64,000 bases of DNA, taken from IMG/VR virus record IMGVR_UViG_2858553787_000001; one strand, written 5' to 3'. The DNA comes from an uncultured virus (IMG/VR IMGVR_UViG_2858553787_000001) (lineage: Duplodnaviria; Heunggongvirae; Uroviricota; Caudoviricetes). The notes under the pieces were generated by a model. It ran no database searches, had not been told where the DNA came from, and saw only the letters and a program-made list of their open reading frames with translations. The translations under genes and the position numbers were made by a program. Of this stretch, positions 144 to 48,605 are shown in pieces. The first letter of the stretch is position 1. Every line of letters starts with the position of its first letter.

Positions 144-1112
144 TTATACTGCCTCTGCCGGAATTTGGTTCATTTTTTCTGTGAACTCTTCCACAGTCAT
201 GTGCAAATCCTGAGCCGCTTCCTCAATGGAAATCTTGCCCTTCTTATAATACTTCACTGTCGCTCTAAGTTCACCAATGTCAATGCCCTTGTCCTCTGCT
301 CCCTTAAGCAATTCTCGTTCTGCCTGGCACACATCAACCACCTCCGCTCCTTCTGGAATGTCAAATTTAGAATTTGTGCTTACCTTAATCACCTTTGCTG
401 CGCTAACATCGAGATGCTTCAAACGCTCCTCAGATTGCAGGTATTCATCTAACTTTTCGCCATCCTTAGAGAATTTGATAAATCTGAAGACCTCTCTCAG
501 CGTAGATTGGAACTTTCCCATCTCCTCTGGGGTCATTCGCGCTGGTTCAAGCAGGTTGATTTTATAATCTGGCACATAGGAAAGAATTTTCTCATCGGTT
601 GTAGCCATCATCTCTCTTAAAGACATCGGCCCATCCCACTCGCTATCACCGAAATGAATTACCAACGTGATCACCGGTGTTAATCTGTCTTCTTTATATA
701 TACCAGATAAAAACTCCTCTTTTGATTGTTTTCCCGGATGCTCTTTTTTGTGTTTCCTTGCAAGATCCGTTACCTGCCTTCCGTACTGAAGTACATCATA
801 CACAATGTTCTTCACCGGCATCGCATAGTTGATATCGGTCTGGTTCTCTACACCCAAAATCATATATGTTGCTTTATCGTTATACATGACCGTTGTAGAT
901 TTTAGTGCATCCCTGTATTTCTGTGCTGATTCGGTCTGCATTCCCTTTTTCTCATCGAAATAGTACGGTACTGCAAGTTCCGTTGAATCCATCTCAACAA
1001 GACTTTCTGGGTCAATAATAGCTTCGCCACCATACAGGAAGTAGTTAAATGCATCTGCAAATACGGTATTATCTCGTATATAGTCCTTTGTAACGCCATC
1101 TATCAAGCCCAT
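144..1112 (-). CDS. Rpn/YhgA-like PD-(D/E)XK family protein
   Basis: RD..K, LGVENQT..NYAMPV, L.PVITLV.HFG...WDGP.SL motifs; SD AGAAAGGCGG upstream of ATG 1112. Confidence 0.75.
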   Translation of the reverse strand: MGLIDGVTKDYIRDNTVFADAFNYFLYGGEAIIDPESLVEMDSTELAVPYYFDEKKGMQTESAQKYRDALKSTTVMYNDKATYMILGVENQTDINYAMPVKNIVYDVLQYGRQVTDLARKHKKEHPGKQSKEEFLSGIYKEDRLTPVITLVIHFGDSEWDGPMSLREMMATTDEKILSYVPDYKINLLEPARMTPEEMGKFQSTLREVFRFIKFSKDGEKLDEYLQSEERLKHLDVSAAKVIKVSTNSKFDIPEGAEVVDVCQAERELLKGAEDKGIDIGELRATVKYYKKGKISIEEAAQDLHMTVEEFTEKMNQIPAEAV

Positions 1113-1221
1113 CGGTCTCACCGCCTTTCTCGTAGGAGCATACACTGCTCCTATTCTATTTTCATGTTACCATAAAGCCGCCCGTTTATCAAGCGTTCTT
1201 CTGTGATCTTTCCGGCAATTT

Positions 1222-1611
1222 TTACCGCCTTTTCAGACACAGGTACGCATCTTCGATAAAACTCATAAGCTCCACACTGGCAGTCTCGGCCATGTGTTTT
1301 CCGTCCACAGTTTTCAGTCCCTCTACAACTCTACCTGCTACATCATCCCCGCGCTCCCTCATCTCCTGCGCAGCAAACGTCACCGCCTCGTCGATGAAAG
1401 CCGCGTACTTTGCACCATCAATAATGCTTTGCACTGGCACAGCTTCGCCGCTGTCAAGCCGGATCACCTTCGGCTCGTACACAGCAGCCACCTTTCTCAC
1501 TGCTTCTCTCGGTTCCATGTTCTGTAGGTACAGCTTCATAGCTCCTGCCACCACGATTTCCGCCGCTGTCGTTCCATATTCTTCTGCCTGCATCTCTGCT
1601 ATATTTTTCAT
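1222..1611 (-). CDS. Hypothetical protein
   Basis: 129-aa ORF with AGGGAG SD, protein-like composition. Confidence 0.6.
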   Translation of the reverse strand: MKNIAEMQAEEYGTTAAEIVVAGAMKLYLQNMEPREAVRKVAAVYEPKVIRLDSGEAVPVQSIIDGAKYAAFIDEAVTFAAQEMRERGDDVAGRVVEGLKTVDGKHMAETASVELMSFIEDAYLCLKRR

Positions 1612-1776
1612 TCTCGGTTCTCCCTTGCTATGTTTTCTGTTATGTTTTTTCTTCTGCTATGTGTATTTCTCGCCACCCACAACATATAACAGAACTCTGC
1701 ACATAGCAATCCCCACAGGTAAAAAAGACCAGACAGATAAAAAGACCAGACAAAAAACAATACTACCCCCACAAAC

Positions 1777-1823
1777 AAAAAAAGCCCTGCCAGATGCAGT
1801 CACAAAAGCCACATCCGACAGGG
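1777..1823 (-). terminator. Terminator after recombinase operon
   Basis: CCCTGTCGGATGTGG / CTGCATCTGGCAGGG stem then T7 on minus strand. Confidence 0.7.
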
Positions 1824-1840
1824 TACTCTTTCCTATTACA

Positions 1841-4141
1841 TCATACTGCTTCTTCTCTCTCACGCTTTGCTGCAGTCGTCAGATACCGCCTATACTGAAC
1901 GCTGAATCCATACACTTTGTAAGGGGCGTCAATAAAAACCACATTGCCGTTCAGGTCGCTCCGCTTATAGCCCATAAAGCTGGTGAGCGTCCTGCGGTTG
2001 CCTTTTGAGGTCAGTGTCACACCGAAGTTCGTCTTGTAAGTTGCCACATCCCCCTGCAAAACTCCGCTCTCGATAAAGGCGCAGTAAATGCCCTTTTCAA
2101 AGTGGAGCATATCCGGTGCTTCTGCGATTCGCTCCGGCGTCACCTTGAGCTTTCCTCTGGTGATGGCGTACTTCCGCCCTTCGATGGTGTTGCCATCGGC
2201 ATCTCGCATCAGGCTTCCCTGCACATCCAACCCATTAACTTTCAGCGGCATTCCGCTGGCATTGGCATCCGGCAGTTCTTTCAGGCAGGCGATGAAGTAT
2301 TCAAAGTTCTTTTTCATAATGGCTAGAACGCCCTGCTCCTGCTCGATAGTCTGCTGTTCCTGCCGGAGTGTCTGCAAGTGTTCCTGCAGGTCATTCACAA
2401 GTTCTGTATAAATCTGTGCTTCCGAGCCTTCCTCCGTTTCTGTCCCATAGAAGCTCACTCCAATACTGCCCGGTGTCAGTCCGCTTCGGATGTCCAAATC
2501 GATATCATCAATGGTCACCTCGCCGTTGGAAAGAGCTTCATTCAGTTCCGCACTCTGTTCCAGCGCGGCTTCCCGAAGTGCCGCCACCTGATGGCTGATA
2601 GCATCCTGCAAGCGTTCTTCCATCTCTTTAATTTGATTCTCCACCGTTGCCATCCTCTGCACCGAGATGCTGCTGTTGTTTGCCAGCCGGACGGCCTGCT
2701 CATAGGCATTATCGAACATGGTCACGATCATGGAAGCGTCACCGTGCTGTTCGTAATCCCGCTTCATGCTGTAGAGCAGTTCCATAAAGCTCTGCTCCAA
2801 TGCACACTCGTGATAAAGTTCTGATGGGCAACGCTTGTCCGCGGCTTCCTTTTCCTCATCCGACATACAGCCTTTCTTGCTTCGGCTGTACATTTTCTGA
2901 TCGGGAGTGCCATTTTTCGGCGGCTCACCGTCCCGTTCTCCGACTTTCCGCTTGCACCGCCAGACTGGGTAGGAATAAGTATACTTTTCCAGATACTCTC
3001 CGGTATCATCCCCGGTTGCTTTAAGGCTCCGCTCATCGGTATAACCGTTTGCCACACCCGTGTAGGTCACTCGGAAGAATCCCTCACTGCAGGGCTTTCC
3101 TGCATCCGGTCCATTCTCCAGAATCGCACCGCAGCGCAGATTCCCAAAAGGAGAACCCTTGATCGTCTTTATTTTCTTCCTGCCTGGACCTTTGGTCATG
3201 TCCGTCCTAGGCTTCTCGAACAGCATCGTCTGTACCTTATCCCACGTCACGCGGTCAATGATACCGACATGATGGTTCTTTACATAGTAACGGGGTGCTT
3301 CACCCTTGTTGATACTGGAACGGTGGGTCAGGAAGTCTTTGGTGATGGTCTTCTGCATCTCAAGGTCGCCCACATATTTCTCATTCCGCAGTACAATCAT
3401 AATCGTGCTTGCACTCCACTTCTTTCCATTGACCGTAAACTTCTCCATCTGATTCAGTTCCCGTGCGATTTTATTCGCCGTTTGCCCTTTCACAAAGCGG
3501 TCGAAAATGTACCGGACGATCTCTGCCTGCTCCGGCACAATAACCCACTGCTGGTTAGGTCCCAGTTCATACCCCAACATCCGTTTCAAATTGATATGCG
3601 GGATGCCTGCCTGGAAATTCTTCTGAATACTCCAACGGATGTTGTCCGAAATGGAACGGCTCTCATCCTGTGCCAGGGCAGAAAGAATTGTCAGGATAAG
3701 CTCACCTTTGGCATCCAGCGTGTCGATGTTCTCCTTCTCGAAATAGATACCCACAGGCGGCTTCAGCTGTCGAAGCTCACGGGTACAGGTCAGGGAATCA
3801 ATGGTGTTTCGGGCGAATCGGGAAATGGACTTCGTAACAATGTAGTCCAGCTTGCCATCCATCGCATCCTTCATCATGCGGTTGAATTCCTCACGATGCT
3901 CTCGGTTGGTACCAGACTTTGCCTCATCCGCATAAATGCCTGCAAAAATCCAACCAGGCTTCCGAGTAATGAGGTCTTTATAAAATGCCTTCTGGGTCGT
4001 GTAAGAAGTCTGCTGGCTTTCATCTCCCGTGGAAACACGGCAGTAGGCCGCCACACGGATGTTGGTCTGGCTTTTCAACTGCCCACCGTTCTGCACCGAC
4101 CGCACACTGGCCGGAATCACATCCACTTTTTGTCTTGTCAT
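1841..4141 (-). CDS. Large serine recombinase
   Basis: AAYCRVST catalytic motif, TKSISRFARN, AQDESRSIS, recombinase domain (L.NEKYVG), Cys-rich zinc ribbon, coiled coil. Confidence 0.95.
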   Translation of the reverse strand: MTRQKVDVIPASVRSVQNGGQLKSQTNIRVAAYCRVSTGDESQQTSYTTQKAFYKDLITRKPGWIFAGIYADEAKSGTNREHREEFNRMMKDAMDGKLDYIVTKSISRFARNTIDSLTCTRELRQLKPPVGIYFEKENIDTLDAKGELILTILSALAQDESRSISDNIRWSIQKNFQAGIPHINLKRMLGYELGPNQQWVIVPEQAEIVRYIFDRFVKGQTANKIARELNQMEKFTVNGKKWSASTIMIVLRNEKYVGDLEMQKTITKDFLTHRSSINKGEAPRYYVKNHHVGIIDRVTWDKVQTMLFEKPRTDMTKGPGRKKIKTIKGSPFGNLRCGAILENGPDAGKPCSEGFFRVTYTGVANGYTDERSLKATGDDTGEYLEKYTYSYPVWRCKRKVGERDGEPPKNGTPDQKMYSRSKKGCMSDEEKEAADKRCPSELYHECALEQSFMELLYSMKRDYEQHGDASMIVTMFDNAYEQAVRLANNSSISVQRMATVENQIKEMEERLQDAISHQVAALREAALEQSAELNEALSNGEVTIDDIDLDIRSGLTPGSIGVSFYGTETEEGSEAQIYTELVNDLQEHLQTLRQEQQTIEQEQGVLAIMKKNFEYFIACLKELPDANASGMPLKVNGLDVQGSLMRDADGNTIEGRKYAITRGKLKVTPERIAEAPDMLHFEKGIYCAFIESGVLQGDVATYKTNFGVTLTSKGNRRTLTSFMGYKRSDLNGNVVFIDAPYKVYGFSVQYRRYLTTAAKREREEAV

Positions 4142-41825: not shown

Positions 41826-43001
41826 TTACGCTCCCGCCTCCAGCATCTGCGCCGTGTCTGCCCCACAGTCGGGCTGTGTCGGCTGGGCTGCATCCGGTGC
41901 GACCGTTTCCCCTGTGGCAGGATTGCCGTTCTGTGCGGCTTGTTTCGCGGCTTTCAGGGCATCCCGCTTTGCCTTTTCCCTTGCAAGGAACTTCTGTGCT
42001 TCCTCATCCGTGCGGAAAGCCGCATGGCCGGAAAGGTTCTCCATGAGGATCTTGCGTGTTTCCTTGAAATCCGGACCGTTCATGCCCAGCCGTAGGAGCC
42101 ATGTGCGGAGTGCGTATTTCTCATTCTCATCGTTGACATCCTTTGCCTGGATGCGCTTCTGGCTGATAGCCTGCTGGTTCATCAGCACCGCCAGCTGTGC
42201 AAAAGCCGTCAGATGTTCGTGGTCCGGTGCAGTCGGGAAGCCGGTGAAGGTAACCTTCTCGGTGGTGATCTTCAAGCCTTCCAGTGCAGCACCATGTTCA
42301 GTCTCATAGTCGCTGACCGCGTTGATGAAGTTCATGATGGCAAAGGTGCAGCTATCGTCCTTCAGCTTCTCGACCAGCCCCTCTTCCACATGGAAGTGTC
42401 CGCCAGTCGCCTTGCCGATGAGCTTGCCGCGGCTGTAAAGAAGGTTGACCAGGTTGCGGAGAGTCACACCATTGTGCTGGCTGACCGGGAATGCAAGTTC
42501 CAAGTCCAGCGGCACTTCTCCCGGCTGGTCTTCTGCTTCTGATTGCTCCTCGCTTTCCGGCCCCTCTGCATCCGGCTCATCCTCTGCCGCATTATCCGGC
42601 TCCGATGCTTCCTCGGATTCGGCTTCCGCAAGCTCGTTTTCCTCTGCGGTATCTGCATCTTCGGATTCCTGCTCGTCCGGAGCTTCCGGCTCTGCTTCGG
42701 TATCCTCAGTCACAGGCTCCTCTTCCAAATGGTCGGTCGGCTCTGTGTCCTCCAACTGGTCATCCATGCTCTCAATGCTCTCGCCGCCGCGGATCAGTCC
42801 CTCATTCAGCAGGGTCGTCAACAGTTCGGCATCTGCATTCTCAGGCTCGACCAGAAGGTTGCCATTCCGGTCGATTGTGTAGCTCCCAATGTCGTAGGAG
42901 TACAGAGGTGCTTTGGTATAGTAAGGGTGAATGCCGGTCAGTTCCTCCATGCGTTTTGCGAGGGTCTTGCGCTCGGCTACGTTCAGTTTAAATTTCAACA
43001 T
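41826..43001 (-). CDS. Phage protein with long acidic insert and amidoligase-like C-terminal module
   Basis: 391 aa; NEKYA.R.WLLRLG..G...K..R.IL..NL.G. Confidence 0.75.
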   Translation of the reverse strand: MLKFKLNVAERKTLAKRMEELTGIHPYYTKAPLYSYDIGSYTIDRNGNLLVEPENADAELLTTLLNEGLIRGGESIESMDDQLEDTEPTDHLEEEPVTEDTEAEPEAPDEQESEDADTAEENELAEAESEEASEPDNAAEDEPDAEGPESEEQSEAEDQPGEVPLDLELAFPVSQHNGVTLRNLVNLLYSRGKLIGKATGGHFHVEEGLVEKLKDDSCTFAIMNFINAVSDYETEHGAALEGLKITTEKVTFTGFPTAPDHEHLTAFAQLAVLMNQQAISQKRIQAKDVNDENEKYALRTWLLRLGMNGPDFKETRKILMENLSGHAAFRTDEEAQKFLAREKAKRDALKAAKQAAQNGNPATGETVAPDAAQPTQPDCGADTAQMLEAGA

Positions 43002-43359: not shown

Positions 43360-45714
43360 TTATTCTTCCAGACCTGCGCACCATGCGATGCCGGCCAGAA
43401 CAAAGAATGCGTTGGCTAAGCATATGCCATTACCCCAGATACGGTACTCTGCCGAATCCGTGTAAGGGTCAGCCAGCCATTTCCGGATCTGCTTCTCCGT
43501 TTTCGGCTTCTTGGCATGGGTCACGATCTTGCGGTGCGTTTCAAACACATCCGCCCAGAACGCCAGCTCTTCTTCGGTCGGGTTTTCCGTTCCAAGATCC
43601 CTGCACCACCAGTCCGGGAAGCCCTGCAGTCTGGCACACTCGGTCGGTGTCAGACGGCGGACGGTATAGGTCACAGGTGTCGGCTGTGCTTCCGGATTGT
43701 CGATGACCAGACGGTCATTGAAAGCATCCTGCCCGTTGAAGCCGCTGGGATGCGCCCCGGCTGCTACCGTTCCCATGACACCCTCGTTCAGATGCGGCAC
43801 CGGTGCGATGGTGGTCGGGTCTTTGTAATCCCGTGCCATCAAGGTCGGTGCGACTTCTTTTGCCACCTGCATATAAGAGCCGGTGGTCATGGCATACACA
43901 TCCTCCGGTGCGCAGACTGCATGGCGGTCAGTGGCATCCAGTGTAAAGCAGACATCCTCATTGACGCCATCCCCCTGCGGACCGTTCTCATCCTTGCGGC
44001 CGATCATGTTGCCCTGCAGAACGAAGGTCTGCATCTGATCACTCCGGGTCGCCATCAAAGCTCCGGACTTGCCATGCAGGTCGATCAGCTCATTGCGCTG
44101 GTTCACATGGAACGCAGTCACATCTTCCGGCTGTGCCACAAAGGTCTGCTGCTTCATCCCCGGCTCTGCTGCCAGTGCCGCTGACTTCTCTCCCAGATCC
44201 CGGACTTCATCCCTCTGGTTCTGGGTAAAGGCGACAGCTGGCGCACCGCCGTGTGTACACGACAGTGTCGGTGCCACCTGCTCGTCCACCGTACAGTTCG
44301 ACTTACCGCCACCCTGATCCACACAAACTACAGGTTCGCAGATACACAGTCCTCCCTGATTGCAGGTCGGGTCACCACCGCTGCGGTCCAGTGTCCGGGA
44401 AGTTTCGGCCTCATAAAAACCGCTGTGCGGATTATCGGACATCATGGAGTGGCTGGCTTTGGAGCAGACACCATAGCATTTCGGAACGAACAGTGTCTGG
44501 TCGTTGTTGCAGCCGAGGGTGGCTGACTTTTCTTCCTGCCAGATGGCTCCCTTGCCGCCACCCTCGCAACCGGAGCGGATCTTCAGTGTGACTGCCGGGG
44601 AGTTTTCAACTTCTTTCACCGGACTTTCCACTGAATTTTCAACAGCGTCCATGACCATCGGGACATTACCGCCGCCCGTACCACACCGGCTTGTCAGTGT
44701 CTGCACCTTACCGTCCTCGGAAATCTTCACCCGGCTGTCAGCAGGATGATTTTCCAGTGCGATGGCGGCAGGCACAACACCAGCCCGGAGGGTCGGTGAG
44801 CGTTCCTCCTCGTATCCGATGCTTCTGGCATCTGCCGAATGCTCGGTACAGAAACCGGCAGCTTCCAGAACACACGGCTGATGCCCATGCTCCTCTGCCC
44901 GGAGGGTTCCGGTCACATCCTGGGAAACATCCATCTGCTTACCGCCCTGGTCGTTCAGACAGATCCGTCCTCCTGCTCCGCTGAAGCCTGCCTCTCCAGT
45001 GCCGCTTTCAGCACCGGCGGCAGCTCTTTGCCACGCACGGAAGCCCTCCGCAGAATACCGAGACACGCCTTCGGACTCAAATAGTACCTTTGGGGCACTC
45101 TGGTCTGCAAAATCTGCGACAAGGTAGATACGTTTTCTTCTTTGGGGAACGCCCCACCATTGTGCATCAAGAACTCGATACGCGACGCTCCATCCGTCTC
45201 CCACGTAGTAGTCAGCGTCGGGCCATCCTTTCTTCTCAGGCGCAGGCACCGAGGCGGCCGGTTCTTTAACACCGATGACAGCTTCGAGGACTGCTTTGAA
45301 GTCCTGTCCTTTGTTTGAGGAGAAGGCCCCTGGCACATTCTCCCAGACGATAAATCTTGGTTTTTCTCCATTGGTCTTACACCTCATTTCCTTCACGATT
45401 CGGATTGCTTCATAAAACAGGCTGGACCGTGAACCATCCAGACCATCTCTCTTACCGGCGATGGACATATCCTGACAGGGACTGCCAAAGGTGATGATGT
45501 CTACAGGAGGCAGGTCTGCACCGCTGATGGCGGATACATCTCCGTAATGCTTCACCTGCGGCAGACGCTTCGTCGTGACCCGGATGGCAAACGGCTCGAT
45601 CTCGCTGCTCCACACCGGAGTGATCTGCCCGGTCAAAAGCCCACCCAATGGAAAACCCCCGGAGCCATCAAAGAGGCTGCCGAGGGTCAAGGTCTTATTC
45701 TGTTCTGTGCTCAT
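43360..45714 (-). CDS. DNA cytosine-5 methyltransferase with very long variable region
   Basis: LFDGSGG (I), GSPCQD (IV), ENV (VI), QRRKR (VIII), RRLTP.ECARLQGFP (IX), GNG (X). Confidence 0.95.
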   Translation of the reverse strand: MSTEQNKTLTLGSLFDGSGGFPLGGLLTGQITPVWSSEIEPFAIRVTTKRLPQVKHYGDVSAISGADLPPVDIITFGSPCQDMSIAGKRDGLDGSRSSLFYEAIRIVKEMRCKTNGEKPRFIVWENVPGAFSSNKGQDFKAVLEAVIGVKEPAASVPAPEKKGWPDADYYVGDGWSVAYRVLDAQWWGVPQRRKRIYLVADFADQSAPKVLFESEGVSRYSAEGFRAWQRAAAGAESGTGEAGFSGAGGRICLNDQGGKQMDVSQDVTGTLRAEEHGHQPCVLEAAGFCTEHSADARSIGYEEERSPTLRAGVVPAAIALENHPADSRVKISEDGKVQTLTSRCGTGGGNVPMVMDAVENSVESPVKEVENSPAVTLKIRSGCEGGGKGAIWQEEKSATLGCNNDQTLFVPKCYGVCSKASHSMMSDNPHSGFYEAETSRTLDRSGGDPTCNQGGLCICEPVVCVDQGGGKSNCTVDEQVAPTLSCTHGGAPAVAFTQNQRDEVRDLGEKSAALAAEPGMKQQTFVAQPEDVTAFHVNQRNELIDLHGKSGALMATRSDQMQTFVLQGNMIGRKDENGPQGDGVNEDVCFTLDATDRHAVCAPEDVYAMTTGSYMQVAKEVAPTLMARDYKDPTTIAPVPHLNEGVMGTVAAGAHPSGFNGQDAFNDRLVIDNPEAQPTPVTYTVRRLTPTECARLQGFPDWWCRDLGTENPTEEELAFWADVFETHRKIVTHAKKPKTEKQIRKWLADPYTDSAEYRIWGNGICLANAFFVLAGIAWCAGLEE
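44955..45371 (-). CDS. Overprinted +1-frame ORF inside C5 MTase (beta-subunit-like)
   Basis: GAGGTG SD 8 nt upstream; TLSQIL...VP..YYLS.KAC.GILRRA..RGK.LP..L..AL. Confidence 0.7.
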   Translation of the reverse strand: MEKNQDLSSGRMCQGPSPQTKDRTSKQSSKLSSVLKNRPPRCLRLRRKDGPTLTTTWETDGASRIEFLMHNGGAFPKEENVSTLSQILQTRVPQRYYLSPKACLGILRRASVRGKELPPVLKAALERQASAEQEDGSV

Positions 45715-46484
45715 GCGGAAGCCTCCTCTCCGAGCATCTGCTCATTTGCTTTCCGGTAAAAATCTCTGGATACTTCAAATCCGTAACTGTTGCGCCCAAG
45801 TTCTCTTGCTGCTCTCAGCGTGGAGCCGCTGCCGGCGCAGGGGTCAATGACCACATCGCCCTCATCTGTAAAGGTCTCGATCAGTCGTTTCAGCACAGAG
45901 ATCGGTTTCTGGGAGGGATGGATCTTCGGATATTCCTTGCCATCCCGCTTCCAGCCAAACCAGTTGAAGATCATGTGGGGCTTTCCATCCTCACCGAGAT
46001 TACGGAACTTCGGGAGCTTTCCCCGGTACAGTACCAGAGCGTACTCCGTTGCACCCACGATCTTCATGTTGGCTTTTAAGACCTGCGGACTGTAGTCCTT
46101 GCAGAACACCAGAGGGATATAATTCTTGAAGCCGTATTTCTCTGCTTCGGTGAGCACCTTCGGGATCTGCTGGAACGCACAGAACACGATCATGCACGGC
46201 GCATCCTTCTCGCCCGTGCCGGGTTCTTTCTTCAGCAGTCGGTTGCAGAAATGGAAATACTCTGCAATGTTGAAGGTGAAGTCGGTATTGAATGCCGCTT
46301 TCCTTGCCTTGCTGCTCTCCCCGTTTTTGTTGTCGCCATCCACATACCAGTCCGGCCGGCTGGCGTAGAAATCCGTACCGATGTTGTACGGAATGTCTGC
46401 GATTACCAGCTGCGCCTTGGGGATGTTGTAGGACTTGAAGTTCTGGAAGTTGTCGTGGATGAGGACGCATTTCACATTACTCAT
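45711..46484 (-). CDS. N4C/N6A DNA methyltransferase (beta class)
   Basis: DIPY, HPSQKP, VIDPCAGSGST. Confidence 0.9.
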   Translation of the reverse strand: MSNVKCVLIHDNFQNFKSYNIPKAQLVIADIPYNIGTDFYASRPDWYVDGDNKNGESSKARKAAFNTDFTFNIAEYFHFCNRLLKKEPGTGEKDAPCMIVFCAFQQIPKVLTEAEKYGFKNYIPLVFCKDYSPQVLKANMKIVGATEYALVLYRGKLPKFRNLGEDGKPHMIFNWFGWKRDGKEYPKIHPSQKPISVLKRLIETFTDEGDVVIDPCAGSGSTLRAARELGRNSYGFEVSRDFYRKANEQMLGEEASA

Positions 46485-47101
46485 TGGCGACCTCCCCAGA
46501 AAAACAAAATGTGCCACAAACCGCAAAGTCTGCAAAGCGCATACATTTTTCCGTAACCTGTTTTCTTATCCACTCTGGAGCATCGGCCACATCGTTATAC
46601 CGACCATAATCTCCAAACATACACCGCATACCAACATTTCGAGCTTGTACCGCTTCCTCAAAAGTCAGGTAATATCCAAGATGGATATCATGCTGACTTG
46701 CTTTGATTCTTGCACGGTATTTATTTCTTGGAGGATAAAAGCTCACGCCCGATACACCTGAAGTATTGTTTCTCTGCAAGGGCTGATTGCACTGGTTCTG
46801 CTGGTGAGTACATACACGAAGATTGCACTTCCGATTATCCAGCGTGTCCAGACTGATATGATCGACCTCGTAACCCGCAGGTACATTTGGAAAAATATAC
46901 CGGTGCAGGTAGGTTCCGTTATGGGTAGTGATATAAAGTCGATGGCTATCATCTTCATTTAGATTACGATACCAGTTCGTGTCTCTAATTTTCTCGAAGT
47001 CTTCTGCATCAAACAGAAACCGAGTTCCATCATGAAGCCAGCCATATCCCGTTTTTCCATCATCGGAAAATGTGTATTTCACATTACTCATTGGCAACCT
47101 C
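46469..47101. repeat. 26-bp direct repeat (1 mismatch) flanking HNH-AP2 gene
   Basis: ATTTCACATTACTCATTGGCrACCTC at 46469-94 and 47076-101. Confidence 0.9.
46477..47091 (-). CDS. HNH-AP2 homing endonuclease
   Basis: LHR, VDHI..D.LDNRK.NLR, N.SG..GV, LG.Y...EEA. Confidence 0.88.
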   Translation of the reverse strand: MSNVKYTFSDDGKTGYGWLHDGTRFLFDAEDFEKIRDTNWYRNLNEDDSHRLYITTHNGTYLHRYIFPNVPAGYEVDHISLDTLDNRKCNLRVCTHQQNQCNQPLQRNNTSGVSGVSFYPPRNKYRARIKASQHDIHLGYYLTFEEAVQARNVGMRCMFGDYGRYNDVADAPEWIRKQVTEKCMRFADFAVCGTFCFSGEVANE

Positions 47102-48364
47102 ACTTTCCGGCTCAAAGGTTGCCACCTCATCGAACTTCAACTTCTGACCATCTCGGATGACATACACATCATCGTAGTGACCTTCCTTAAATTGGACGTA
47201 CCGCTTAACCGCCACATCTACAAACTTCGGTTCCAGCTCCACACCATAGCAGATTCGATCAATCTGTTCACAGGCAATCAGGGTAGATGCACTGCCGAGG
47301 AAGCCATCCAGCACAATGCCATTGGTCATGGTGGACTGCTTGATCAGATAGGCAATCAATGGAACCGGCTTACTAGAGGGATGACCGAAACCGTCCTCTT
47401 TTGAATTCTTGATGCCATCAAATTCAAACACATTGGTCTGCTTCTGGTCGCCGTACCAGCGGTGACGGCCATCCTTGCGCCATCCAAAGATGATCGGTTC
47501 GGAGTTGAACTTCCAGTCAGTACGCATCAGCGGCGCACGTGGCTTCTTCCAAATCAGTCCGGCTCCCACCTTGAAGCCCGCATCCTCGAAAGCATCGTAA
47601 AACACACGGGCTTTCATCGTGGCGTAGAATTCATAGATGGAAGCGTCCAGTGCCATCGCATTTTTGAAGTTGGCGTAGACCTTCATCAAAAACTCATAAG
47701 CGGACTTGTCATCCAGATCATCATTCTTGATACTGCCAGAAGCATTCTCCAACTTCACGAAGTAAGGTGCATCCGTACAAACCAGATTGACCTTGGTATC
47801 GCCCAGCAGATTCTTGTATGCTTCCGGGTCAGTGGAATCTCCGCAGATAACCGTGTGCTTACCAAGATGCCAGATATCCCCGGTCTTGGAAAAGCACGGC
47901 TGCTTCAGCTCGGATTCCACATCGAAGTCATCTTCCTTGACCTCTTTGCTGTGTACCTTGTTGAACAGCGTCTCGATCTCAGGCGGATCAAAACCTGTCT
48001 TGCCAAGGTCAAAGTTGGAATCTTCGATGTCTTTGAGCAGGTCAGCCAGCAGGGAATCATCCCACGCACCCGTGATCTTATTGAGCGCAATGTTCAGGGC
48101 TTTCTCCCTGGTCTTGTCGATGTCCACCACCGCGCAAGGCACTTCGGTGTAGCCCAGCTCCATCGCTACGGTCAATCTCTGGTGGCCGCCGATGATCGTC
48201 ATGTCGGCATTGACTACCAAAGGATCTGCGAAACCGAACTCCGTAATGGAGTTCTTGATCTTCTCGTACTCTTTATCCCCCGGCTTCAGCTTCTTCCGGG
48301 GATTGTATGCGGCCGGCTTGAGTACGGACACCGGCAGCATCTTCAGTTTAGCAGTCGCTTTCAT
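47084..48364 (-). CDS. ParB-like domain + N6A/N4C DNA methyltransferase
   Basis: YNPR, IGGHQR, DAPY, HP..KPV, LDGFLGSAST. Confidence 0.9.
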   Translation of the reverse strand: MKATAKLKMLPVSVLKPAAYNPRKKLKPGDKEYEKIKNSITEFGFADPLVVNADMTIIGGHQRLTVAMELGYTEVPCAVVDIDKTREKALNIALNKITGAWDDSLLADLLKDIEDSNFDLGKTGFDPPEIETLFNKVHSKEVKEDDFDVESELKQPCFSKTGDIWHLGKHTVICGDSTDPEAYKNLLGDTKVNLVCTDAPYFVKLENASGSIKNDDLDDKSAYEFLMKVYANFKNAMALDASIYEFYATMKARVFYDAFEDAGFKVGAGLIWKKPRAPLMRTDWKFNSEPIIFGWRKDGRHRWYGDQKQTNVFEFDGIKNSKEDGFGHPSSKPVPLIAYLIKQSTMTNGIVLDGFLGSASTLIACEQIDRICYGVELEPKFVDVAVKRYVQFKEGHYDDVYVIRDGQKLKFDEVATFEPESEVANE

Positions 48365-48380
48365 GTAGACTCCTCCTAAT

Positions 48381-48605
48381 TCAGATTCCCATGCGTATGA
48401 CCCCGGAGAATGGCACGAAAAAGGAGCCGAACAAAAAGCCCGACTCCATCTCATCTCCATCTTCCTGCGGCCGTTCAGCCATCTCACACCATTCCGGGTT
48501 TTCCCCGTTCACAGATGCCAGCACCTTTTCTTCCGCATCGTCAATCGCATGTACACAGATACCCCCGGTGTTGAACAACGGATACACACCGATAATCTTA
48601 CTCAT
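48381..48605 (-). CDS. Hypothetical protein
   Basis: Translationally coupled ORF. Confidence 0.65.
   Translation of the reverse strand: MSKIIGVYPLFNTGGICVHAIDDAEEKVLASVNGENPEWCEMAERPQEDGDEMESGFLFGSFFVPFSGVIRMGI

Follow-up and report, generated by a model that had tools for sequence, protein, structure and literature searches.

Two natural two-chain C5 DNA methyltransferases, M.AquI and M.EcoHK31I, are described in the literature (PMC2836561, PMC3404938). In M.EcoHK31I (E. coli HK31, YGGCCR) the beta chain is nested in another frame of the alpha gene and carries motif IX (PMC2836561), and both chains are required (PMC2836561, PMC3404938). In M.AquI (CYCGRG) the alpha chain contains motifs I-VIII and the beta chain contains the rest of the variable region together with motifs IX-X (PMC3404938). 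Here we describe an open reading frame (ORF) nested in the +1 frame of a C5 methyltransferase gene, for which we use the name betaN. It lies in a stretch of 64,000 nucleotides (nt) recorded in IMG/VR as an uncultured virus of the Caudoviricetes (IMGVR_UViG_2858553787_000001), referred to below as the window. An initial annotation of this DNA, made from its letters without database searches, had proposed that the ORF is a second, overprinted gene encoding a beta-subunit-like protein.

The window is compared with these two enzymes by the layout given in their descriptions. M.EcoHK31I and the window share a second polypeptide that is encoded wholly within the methyltransferase gene, in another frame and with its own start. 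They differ in that the nested chain of M.EcoHK31I bears motif IX and its large chain lacks it, whereas in the window motif IX (RRLTPTECARLQGFP) is found at residues 686-700 of the main chain, no motif IX is present in the 138-residue nested product, and the nested chain carries the segment adjoining motif VIII. The suggestion that this would be a different split from that of M.EcoHK31I is thereby borne out. M.AquI, also compared by description, is cut in the same manner as several split relatives of the window's enzyme that are presented below (loci L081, L088, L089, L093, L082 and L083 and the cluster of protein P0112). In the window, in contrast, frame 0 is uninterrupted for 784 amino acids (aa), so the main chain is unsplit, and only the first ~135 residues of the 'beta' chain persist, as a separate frame.

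A conserved frame nested in the methyltransferase gene

The main gene and the elements of the nested frame are the following.

43360..45714, minus strand: main gene, 784-aa C5 DNA methyltransferase, frame 0, assigned from the ORF list, Pfam, PHROGs and the positions of its motifs
44955..45371, minus strand: nested +1-frame gene (betaN), 138 codons plus TGA, ATG start, wholly inside the main gene
45384..45386, minus strand: in-frame TGA bounding the nested frame upstream, made by main-frame ATG-AGG
45380..45385, minus strand: Shine-Dalgarno sequence (SD) GAGGTG, with an 8-nt spacer to the nested ATG, formed from the main-frame M-R-C codons (ATG AGG TGT)
45369..45371, minus strand: nested start ATG, made by main-frame Asn-Gly (AAT GG) of a conserved T-N-G
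44955-44957, minus strand: nested stop TGA, end of the 138-codon ORF
44979..45134, minus strand: conserved C-terminal domain of the nested product (residues 80-131) with STLSQIL, RYYLSPKAC, GILRRASVRGKELP and ALERQ, delimited by conservation and predicted helices
44965..45108, minus strand: main-frame residues 203-250, read across the conserved nested domain

The main protein matches PF00145 with an E value of 1.3e-41 and 143.6 bits, above the curated cut-off of 22, and in PHROGs it matches DNA methyltransferase families. Its motifs stand in the expected order, with motif I at residues 14-20, motif IV (PCQ) at 78-81, ENV at 124-129, motif VIII (QRRKRIYLV) at 191-199, motif IX as given above and motif X at 761-764. 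Between motifs VIII and IX there are repeated recognition-type modules. Within residues 203-250 the segment LFESEG (residues 211-216) is conserved, and the remainder is a poorly conserved linker rich in Gly, Ala and Ser which extends up to CLNDQGG; main-frame identity among homologues is 0.38-0.44 in residues 225-254.

The nested ATG lies 343 nt downstream of the main-gene start, an offset that places the ORF in the +1 frame, on the same strand and with its own start. The ORF list agrees with the 138-aa ORF that had been reported and with its quoted translation (TLSQIL, VPQRYYLS, GILRRA, RGKELP), and the strong SD that had been noted, GAGGTG at 45385-45380 with its 8-nt spacer, was found as described. 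The overlap, originally given as motifs VI-VIII, does cover these motifs and is larger than stated, since the nested ORF spans main residues 115-254, from ENV through motif VIII plus 55 residues beyond it.

An open frame of this length is not remarkable in the window taken alone, where an exact calculation conditioned on the main amino-acid sequence and codon usage gave a probability of 0.116 for an open +1 frame; it is the comparative evidence that is decisive. Viral contigs were scanned with the main protein, and 76 loci were obtained. The ENV motif is present in 68 rows (67 loci and the window), and in 65 of them the +1 frame is open for 133-159 codons with the same TGA at its start. The remaining three comprise two rows that run into a contig end and L008 (on the same contig as L123), in which a frameshift breaks both frames. 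Among the 62 loci with a complete main gene we retained 39, no two of which share 90% or more protein identity; compared with the main protein of the window, theirs are 48-89% identical. The +1 frame is open in all 39, with a median chance of 0.08 per locus; these homologues are related to each other, and the product of the per-locus chances is not a probability.

The start signals are conserved along with the frame, through the choice made among synonymous main-frame codons. In the window as in the family, the +1 frame of the alpha gene is bounded by the TGA of E-M-R and its ATG comes from T-N-G or T-D-G, and the bounding TGA is found at the identical place in every homologue. The Arg of the conserved E-M-R is encoded by AGG, the codon that yields both this TGA and the GAGG of the SD, in 38 of the 39 homologues (versus 13% of 1206 Arg codons elsewhere in those genes). 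Similarly, the Asn or Asp codon behind the nested ATG ends in T in 38 of 39 (versus 55% of 2539 such codons elsewhere). The sole exception, L044, lacks both the SD codon and the ATG.

Selection on the overlap was assessed by synonymous conservation, that is, codon identity between pairs of homologues sharing the same amino acid, calculated by residue bin. Along the main gene this value is 0.32-0.49 in bins with enough pairs. It reaches 0.62, 0.48, 0.63, 0.64, 0.48 and 0.49 in successive bins of residues 106-195 and 0.88, 0.79, 0.92 and 0.63 in those of residues 196-255, and it is back at background (0.42) in residues 256-270. The synonymous constraint therefore starts at the SD and ATG and stops at the nested TGA. 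Homologues compared in pairs differ at main codon positions 1/2/3 by 0.25/0.14/0.60 in the upstream control region and by 0.26/0.21/0.61 in the C-terminal one, versus 0.37/0.19/0.19 in residues 196-250. In this last stretch variation is highest at the third position of the +1 frame, which is the pattern of a +1-frame gene. In the successive bins of residues 210-254 amino-acid identity is 0.85, 0.70 and 0.54 for the +1 frame versus 0.64, 0.38 and 0.44 for the main frame. In the 5' two-thirds of the overlap the main frame dominates, with codon-position differences of 0.28/0.23/0.50.

As the +1 frame is open in 39/39 homologues, synonymous change is frozen over the overlap, the codon positions vary as in a +1 gene and the start signals are kept, the nested ORF is a real gene under strong purifying selection, with conserved start signals, rather than a chance opening. 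The selection tests and the absence of breaking stops in any of the 39 homologues thus lend strong support to the overprinting that the initial annotation had proposed.

Relatives of the nested product

The nested product is a basic protein of 138 aa with an isoelectric point (pI) of 10.0 and a net charge of +10; the family median pI is 9.67. In alignment A1 it shares full-length similarity with the nested or beta N-terminal modules, including L45, W57 and P76, which are invariant across 43 sequences, as well as LSQIL and YYLS..AC.GILRRA..RGK.LP. Pfam contains no family for the nested products of the window, P1 or Porcelain, and a candidate match of the Vibrio product to Spaetzle (E 0.023, 15.7 bits versus a cut-off of 27) was rejected as sub-threshold and chance-level. 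PHROG 16143, a profile of 139 positions named 'DNA methyltransferase', matches 29 of 43 family members with a best E value of 9.7e-10, and the window's own product with 0.0092. Matches in the ESM Atlas are unnamed 'hypothetical protein' clusters of 132-163 aa.

The AlphaFold2 model of the product alone has a mean predicted local distance difference test score (pLDDT) of 63 and is confident only for residues ~100-131. Residues 1-80 are modelled at a pLDDT of ~50 with a weak hairpin at 44-58, followed by a short helix at 83-87 and by helices at 100-113 and 119-131 with a pLDDT of ~90. According to this model the first ~80 residues would be largely unstructured when alone, and the last ~55 are predicted to form a short helix (LSQIL), a strand segment (YYLS) and a confident helical hairpin (GILRRA..RGKELP..L..ALERQ).

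In a search for the conserved stretch of the C-terminal 63 residues (155 hits), the longer proteins carrying it are of two kinds. Those of the first kind have ~250 aa and an N-terminal methyltransferase part switching into the nested frame (P0001, P0004, P0018, P0020). The switch site differs in each of them and they are mostly singletons, and they look like random indels or sequencing errors. Those of the second kind have 340-620 aa and lack motifs I-VIII; they begin with a whole nested-type module, directly followed in the same frame by recognition modules and motifs IX-X. Examples are P0112 (500 aa, from a cluster of 6205 sequences), P0103 (from a cluster of 609), P0077, P0129, P0131 and P0027. 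In addition, the singleton P0110 has motifs I-IV joined to a P0112-type chain, which shows that the N-terminus of P0112 overlaps an alpha gene. By sequence comparison the nested product is thus homologous, from end to end, to the first ~130 residues of 'beta' chains in the split relatives, and the term beta-subunit-like used in the initial annotation was well chosen.

In a separate lineage (P0122-P0125 and P0132; P0123 represents 155 sequences) the chains begin in the nested frame and rejoin the main frame at motif VIII, with two extra segments of ~20 residues (e.g. DSPQCGEMSRSDRGDGTVRV), as if short insertions had shifted the frame twice. A -1 shift from the nested frame back to the main frame near the nested stop was also considered and rejected, as what follows ALERQ is variable both in length and in sequence and constraint fades there.

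At the DNA level the module occurs in four layouts among the relatives. The layout of the window, a full-length main chain with a nested ORF, was assigned by regular expression to 108 of 155 viral loci, a classification that under-counts nested ORFs; judging by eye the 12 loci left with 'no motif' added L095, L109, L118, L130, L135, L137, L142, L100 and L151. In the second layout the alpha chain ends ~100 codons past motif VIII and the +1 frame continues as beta (L081, L088, L089, L093, L094). A three-piece layout appears to be present in mycobacteriophage Porcelain (L160 1529-2729), where gp116 contains motifs I-VIII, gp117 contains motifs IX-X and an unannotated nested +1 ORF has 157 codons. 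In the last layout the alpha and beta genes are adjacent and do not overlap (L082, L083). The beta chains of these two loci retain the entire module including its N-terminal half, with 35-40% identity to the window, and no alpha remnant that would point to an origin by duplication was seen in the other frames of their genes, which are full of stops. The N-terminal half can therefore be regarded as protein sequence in its own right and not only as a shadow of the alpha frame. At L088 (2498-3709) we also observed a beta-type ORF that continues beyond motif X into the start of the next methyltransferase (TMGSLFDGIGGFPL...), so that tandem methyltransferase genes are both open in one frame.

Searching phage records by tblastn, the nested product found 138 records and its last 63 residues found 162. 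Frames were checked in five distant records (Oscillospiraceae phage PV036431, Streptococcus phage Javan105, coliphage P1 dmt, Vibrio phage PS17B.1 and mycobacteriophage Porcelain), and in all five the match is a +1 ORF nested in an annotated methyltransferase gene. When 1.84 billion cluster representatives were searched with the profile, 4818 matched at E<=1e-3, of which 3628 also did so at 1e-10 and 597 at 1e-30. The best 150 of these 4818 comprise 61 proteins of at most 180 aa, 27 of 181-250 aa and 62 of greater length. In 144 of them the start of the module falls within the first 25 residues and in the other six at 44-119, and in none of the 150 were PCQ and ENV found together in one chain. 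The small ORF has been predicted by gene callers 745 times, with lengths of 75-242 aa, and the sole name given is 'hypothetical protein'. Nested genes on the same strand are, as far as is known, hardly ever annotated in bacterial or phage genomes.

One such annotation concerns phage MM1 of Streptococcus pneumoniae (GenBank AJ302074, 2003), in which ORF14, a 141-aa 'putative methyltransferase', is annotated within the C5 methylase ORF13, in the +1 frame of the latter. The C-terminus of ORF14 (SLSDILEEEVDERYFLS) matches the LSQIL..YYLS segment of the window (STLSQILQTRVPQRYYLS) with an E value of 2e-6. The MM1 enzyme differs in being shorter (385 aa), and ORF14 ends soon past its YFLS segment and lacks the helical hairpin; hhalign of the nested family against the main frame of ORF13 gave no match. 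Coliphage P1 also resembles the window, in having a 162-codon +1 ORF inside dmt (L158 2183-2671) that ends in LLSQVLEQTSIPQRYFLSSKACAGILRRGEKRRKSLPPLLQMALQ. It differs in that Dmt additionally has an adenine methylase domain, and the nested ORF is unannotated in NC_005856. In the accessible parts of the literature on EcoHK31I, M.AquI, P1 dmt, and nested or overlapping genes and C5 methyltransferases, no account or test of the nested gene was found.

A motif of the form Q-[LMIV]-[STDEN]-[LMFI]-[FLP] is present within the first 35 residues of 49 of the 150 best relatives (e.g. GQMSLFDL, EQLTLFDL, DQLDLF). This N-terminal Q-hydrophobic-S/T-hydrophobic-F motif is presumably akin to the bacterial sliding-clamp-binding motif. 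It occurs in P0367, P0374, P0387, P0390, P0401 and others, and at L086 2501-2959 and L160 1704-2177, and the alpha chains of relatives with the motif have an Arg-rich insertion opposite to it. The window's own nested N-terminus (NQDLSSG) has no clamp-like motif.

Genomic surroundings

The window forms part of a bacterial genome of 5.87 Mb and the phage records closest to it are those of gut Oscillospiraceae phages and relatives, which makes it a prophage-type region. The genes upstream of the C5 gene, on the same strand, are the following.

45711-46535, minus strand: N6_N4 methylase, directly upstream of the C5 gene, whose start its stop overlaps by 4 nt
46477-47130, minus strand: HNH_3 protein
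47084-48487, minus strand: ParB_N-N6_N4 methylase

The N6_N4 methylase adjoining the C5 gene contains a nested ORF of its own (46000-46470, 156 codons) with a low-complexity look. Just downstream of the C5 gene there is an ORF of 391 aa (41826-43001, minus strand) with a long acidic middle and no Pfam family. In Streptococcus phage Javan105 the equivalent place is taken by a gene with the annotation 'virulence-related protein', whose C-terminal part is similar by eye to that of this ORF.

The same genome has a second, related C5 methyltransferase (L164; contig 2 near 970 kb, locus ~872-2205, minus strand) that is broken at a run of ten G (G10) between ENV and motif VI. One of its ORFs, of 248 aa, has motifs I-IV joined to the C-terminal half of the nested module, and the other, of 277 aa, has motifs VI-X; one extra G in the run would make the main frame continuous. 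A phase-variable tract, a pseudogene or an error in sequencing the homopolymer might each account for the break.

Possible roles of the nested product

We consider it probable that the nested gene encodes a small basic subunit which is made from the internal ATG and acts in trans on the full-length enzyme, so that the active enzyme would have two chains. Ribosomes would initiate at the internal SD and ATG within the methyltransferase mRNA and produce a basic protein of 138 residues and 15 kDa. The module would have originated as the N-terminal part of the 'beta' chain that is found in split relatives of the same enzyme family. In the window the loose linker would have come to join the alpha chain to the recognition modules and motifs IX-X, and the module would have been left in the +1 frame with its own stop, still strongly selected. 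The small protein may then bind the full-length enzyme non-covalently and provide it with the lead-in to the recognition domain, an element which one-chain enzymes have after motif VIII. Internal initiation, binding to the main chain and a need for activity are all steps that we infer from sequence comparison.

The place assigned to the module comes from E. coli Dcm. With hhalign the main chain of the window aligns with Dcm 164-282, up to motif VIII, at a probability of 96%, and the best match of the nested-ORF family is to Dcm 290-336, the next segment after motif VIII (TLAQLLDPMVEAKYILTP versus STLSQILQTRVPQRYYLSP). Because of this position, the weak similarity itself and the recognition modules that directly follow the module in beta chains, the data fit a module that would serve as a lead-in from the catalytic to the recognition domain and that the main chain would replace by LFESEG and the loose linker.

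Several observations count against a two-chain enzyme of this kind. With all ten motifs in place, the main chain could be active by itself. The match to Dcm 290-336 is not significant (E 0.024 in one comparison, probability 2%), and of the likeness to the segment after motif VIII, which the initial annotation had proposed, it is the location that agrees and the statistical support that falls short. No match was obtained for the family profile against PDB sequences at E<=10, nor for the nested-product model in Foldseek against the PDB at E<=0.001. The N-terminal 80 residues are also of low confidence within the model of a natural beta chain, P0112. Moreover, in the 5' two-thirds of the overlap +1 identity (0.35-0.55) is only modestly above that of the +2 frame (0.24-0.49), and part of the +1 similarity there follows from the conserved main frame. 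The model of P0112 (alignment A3) has a mean pLDDT of 46.6 and is confident only for the helical hairpin (pLDDT 93-95) and the part with motifs IX-X (pLDDT 71-86); its recognition region is unmodelled and the packing of the module cannot be read from it.

It is possible, if unlikely, that the nested gene is translated and its product is no structural part of the enzyme, acting as a DNA-binding or tethering partner, as a regulator of the methyltransferase or in a separate phage role. A basic product that is half predicted to be disordered would suit such an accessory protein, as would the complete set of motifs in the main chain, and the clamp-like motif in 49 of the 150 best relatives suggests a tether in those lineages. 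The window's own N-terminus does not have this motif, however, and the covalent joining of the module, in split relatives, to the chain of recognition modules and motifs IX-X is better accounted for by an integral part of the enzyme.

A bolder proposal, to which we give little credence, starts from the clamp-like motif that the N-terminus of the module bears in many lineages. In a very large family of phage C5 methyltransferases that includes P1 Dmt, the small protein would be a third module, obligatory yet detachable, and it would dock the enzyme on the replication clamp. Evolution would have shuffled it between nested, fused and free-standing forms, and cytosine methylation of phage DNA would be coupled to the fork, as a bacterial-virus counterpart of DNMT1-PCNA. 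The copy in the window would have lost its Q-L-S-L-F-like motif and retained the part that binds the enzyme.

That the +1 segment is instead reached from the main frame by +1 ribosomal frameshifting or slippage, giving a product of ~250 aa with motifs I-VIII and the helical domain, is very improbable. Proteins of this form do exist in databases (P0001, P0004, P0018 and P0020) and L164 reads in this way behind its G10 run. The database fusions, however, switch at differing places, as random indels would, and no conserved slippery site was seen. Furthermore, the 80 codons upstream of the conserved domain are open in all homologues, the SD and ATG are kept in 38 of 39 and the synonymous constraint starts with them, and non-overlapping beta chains contain the entire N-terminal part as protein.

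Finally, it is hardly credible that the ORF is untranslated and its conservation a by-product of the main frame, an RNA or DNA signal or the relic of a former split gene: the chance opening calculated for the window alone and the likewise raised +2 identity in the conserved part would allow it, but over residues 210-254 the main frame is less conserved than the +1 frame, codon positions vary as in a +1 gene, the constraint stops at the stop codon of the ORF, and a relic would have gained stops somewhere in 39 lineages as divergent as these.

The nested gene is conserved and usually unannotated, also in P1, and it is a variant of the known nested-subunit principle. A nested gene under clear selection is present in thousands of methyltransferase gene clusters, including that of the textbook phage P1. 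Should the small chain prove necessary, the 'orphan' phage C5 methyltransferases that have been cloned would be enzymes of two chains and would lose their activity on silent recoding or truncation of the gene, and the assignment of methylomes to genes as well as the engineering of split methyltransferases would have to take the nested gene into account. With one module in nested, fused and free-standing forms, this family also offers a natural case for the origin and resolution of overlapping genes.

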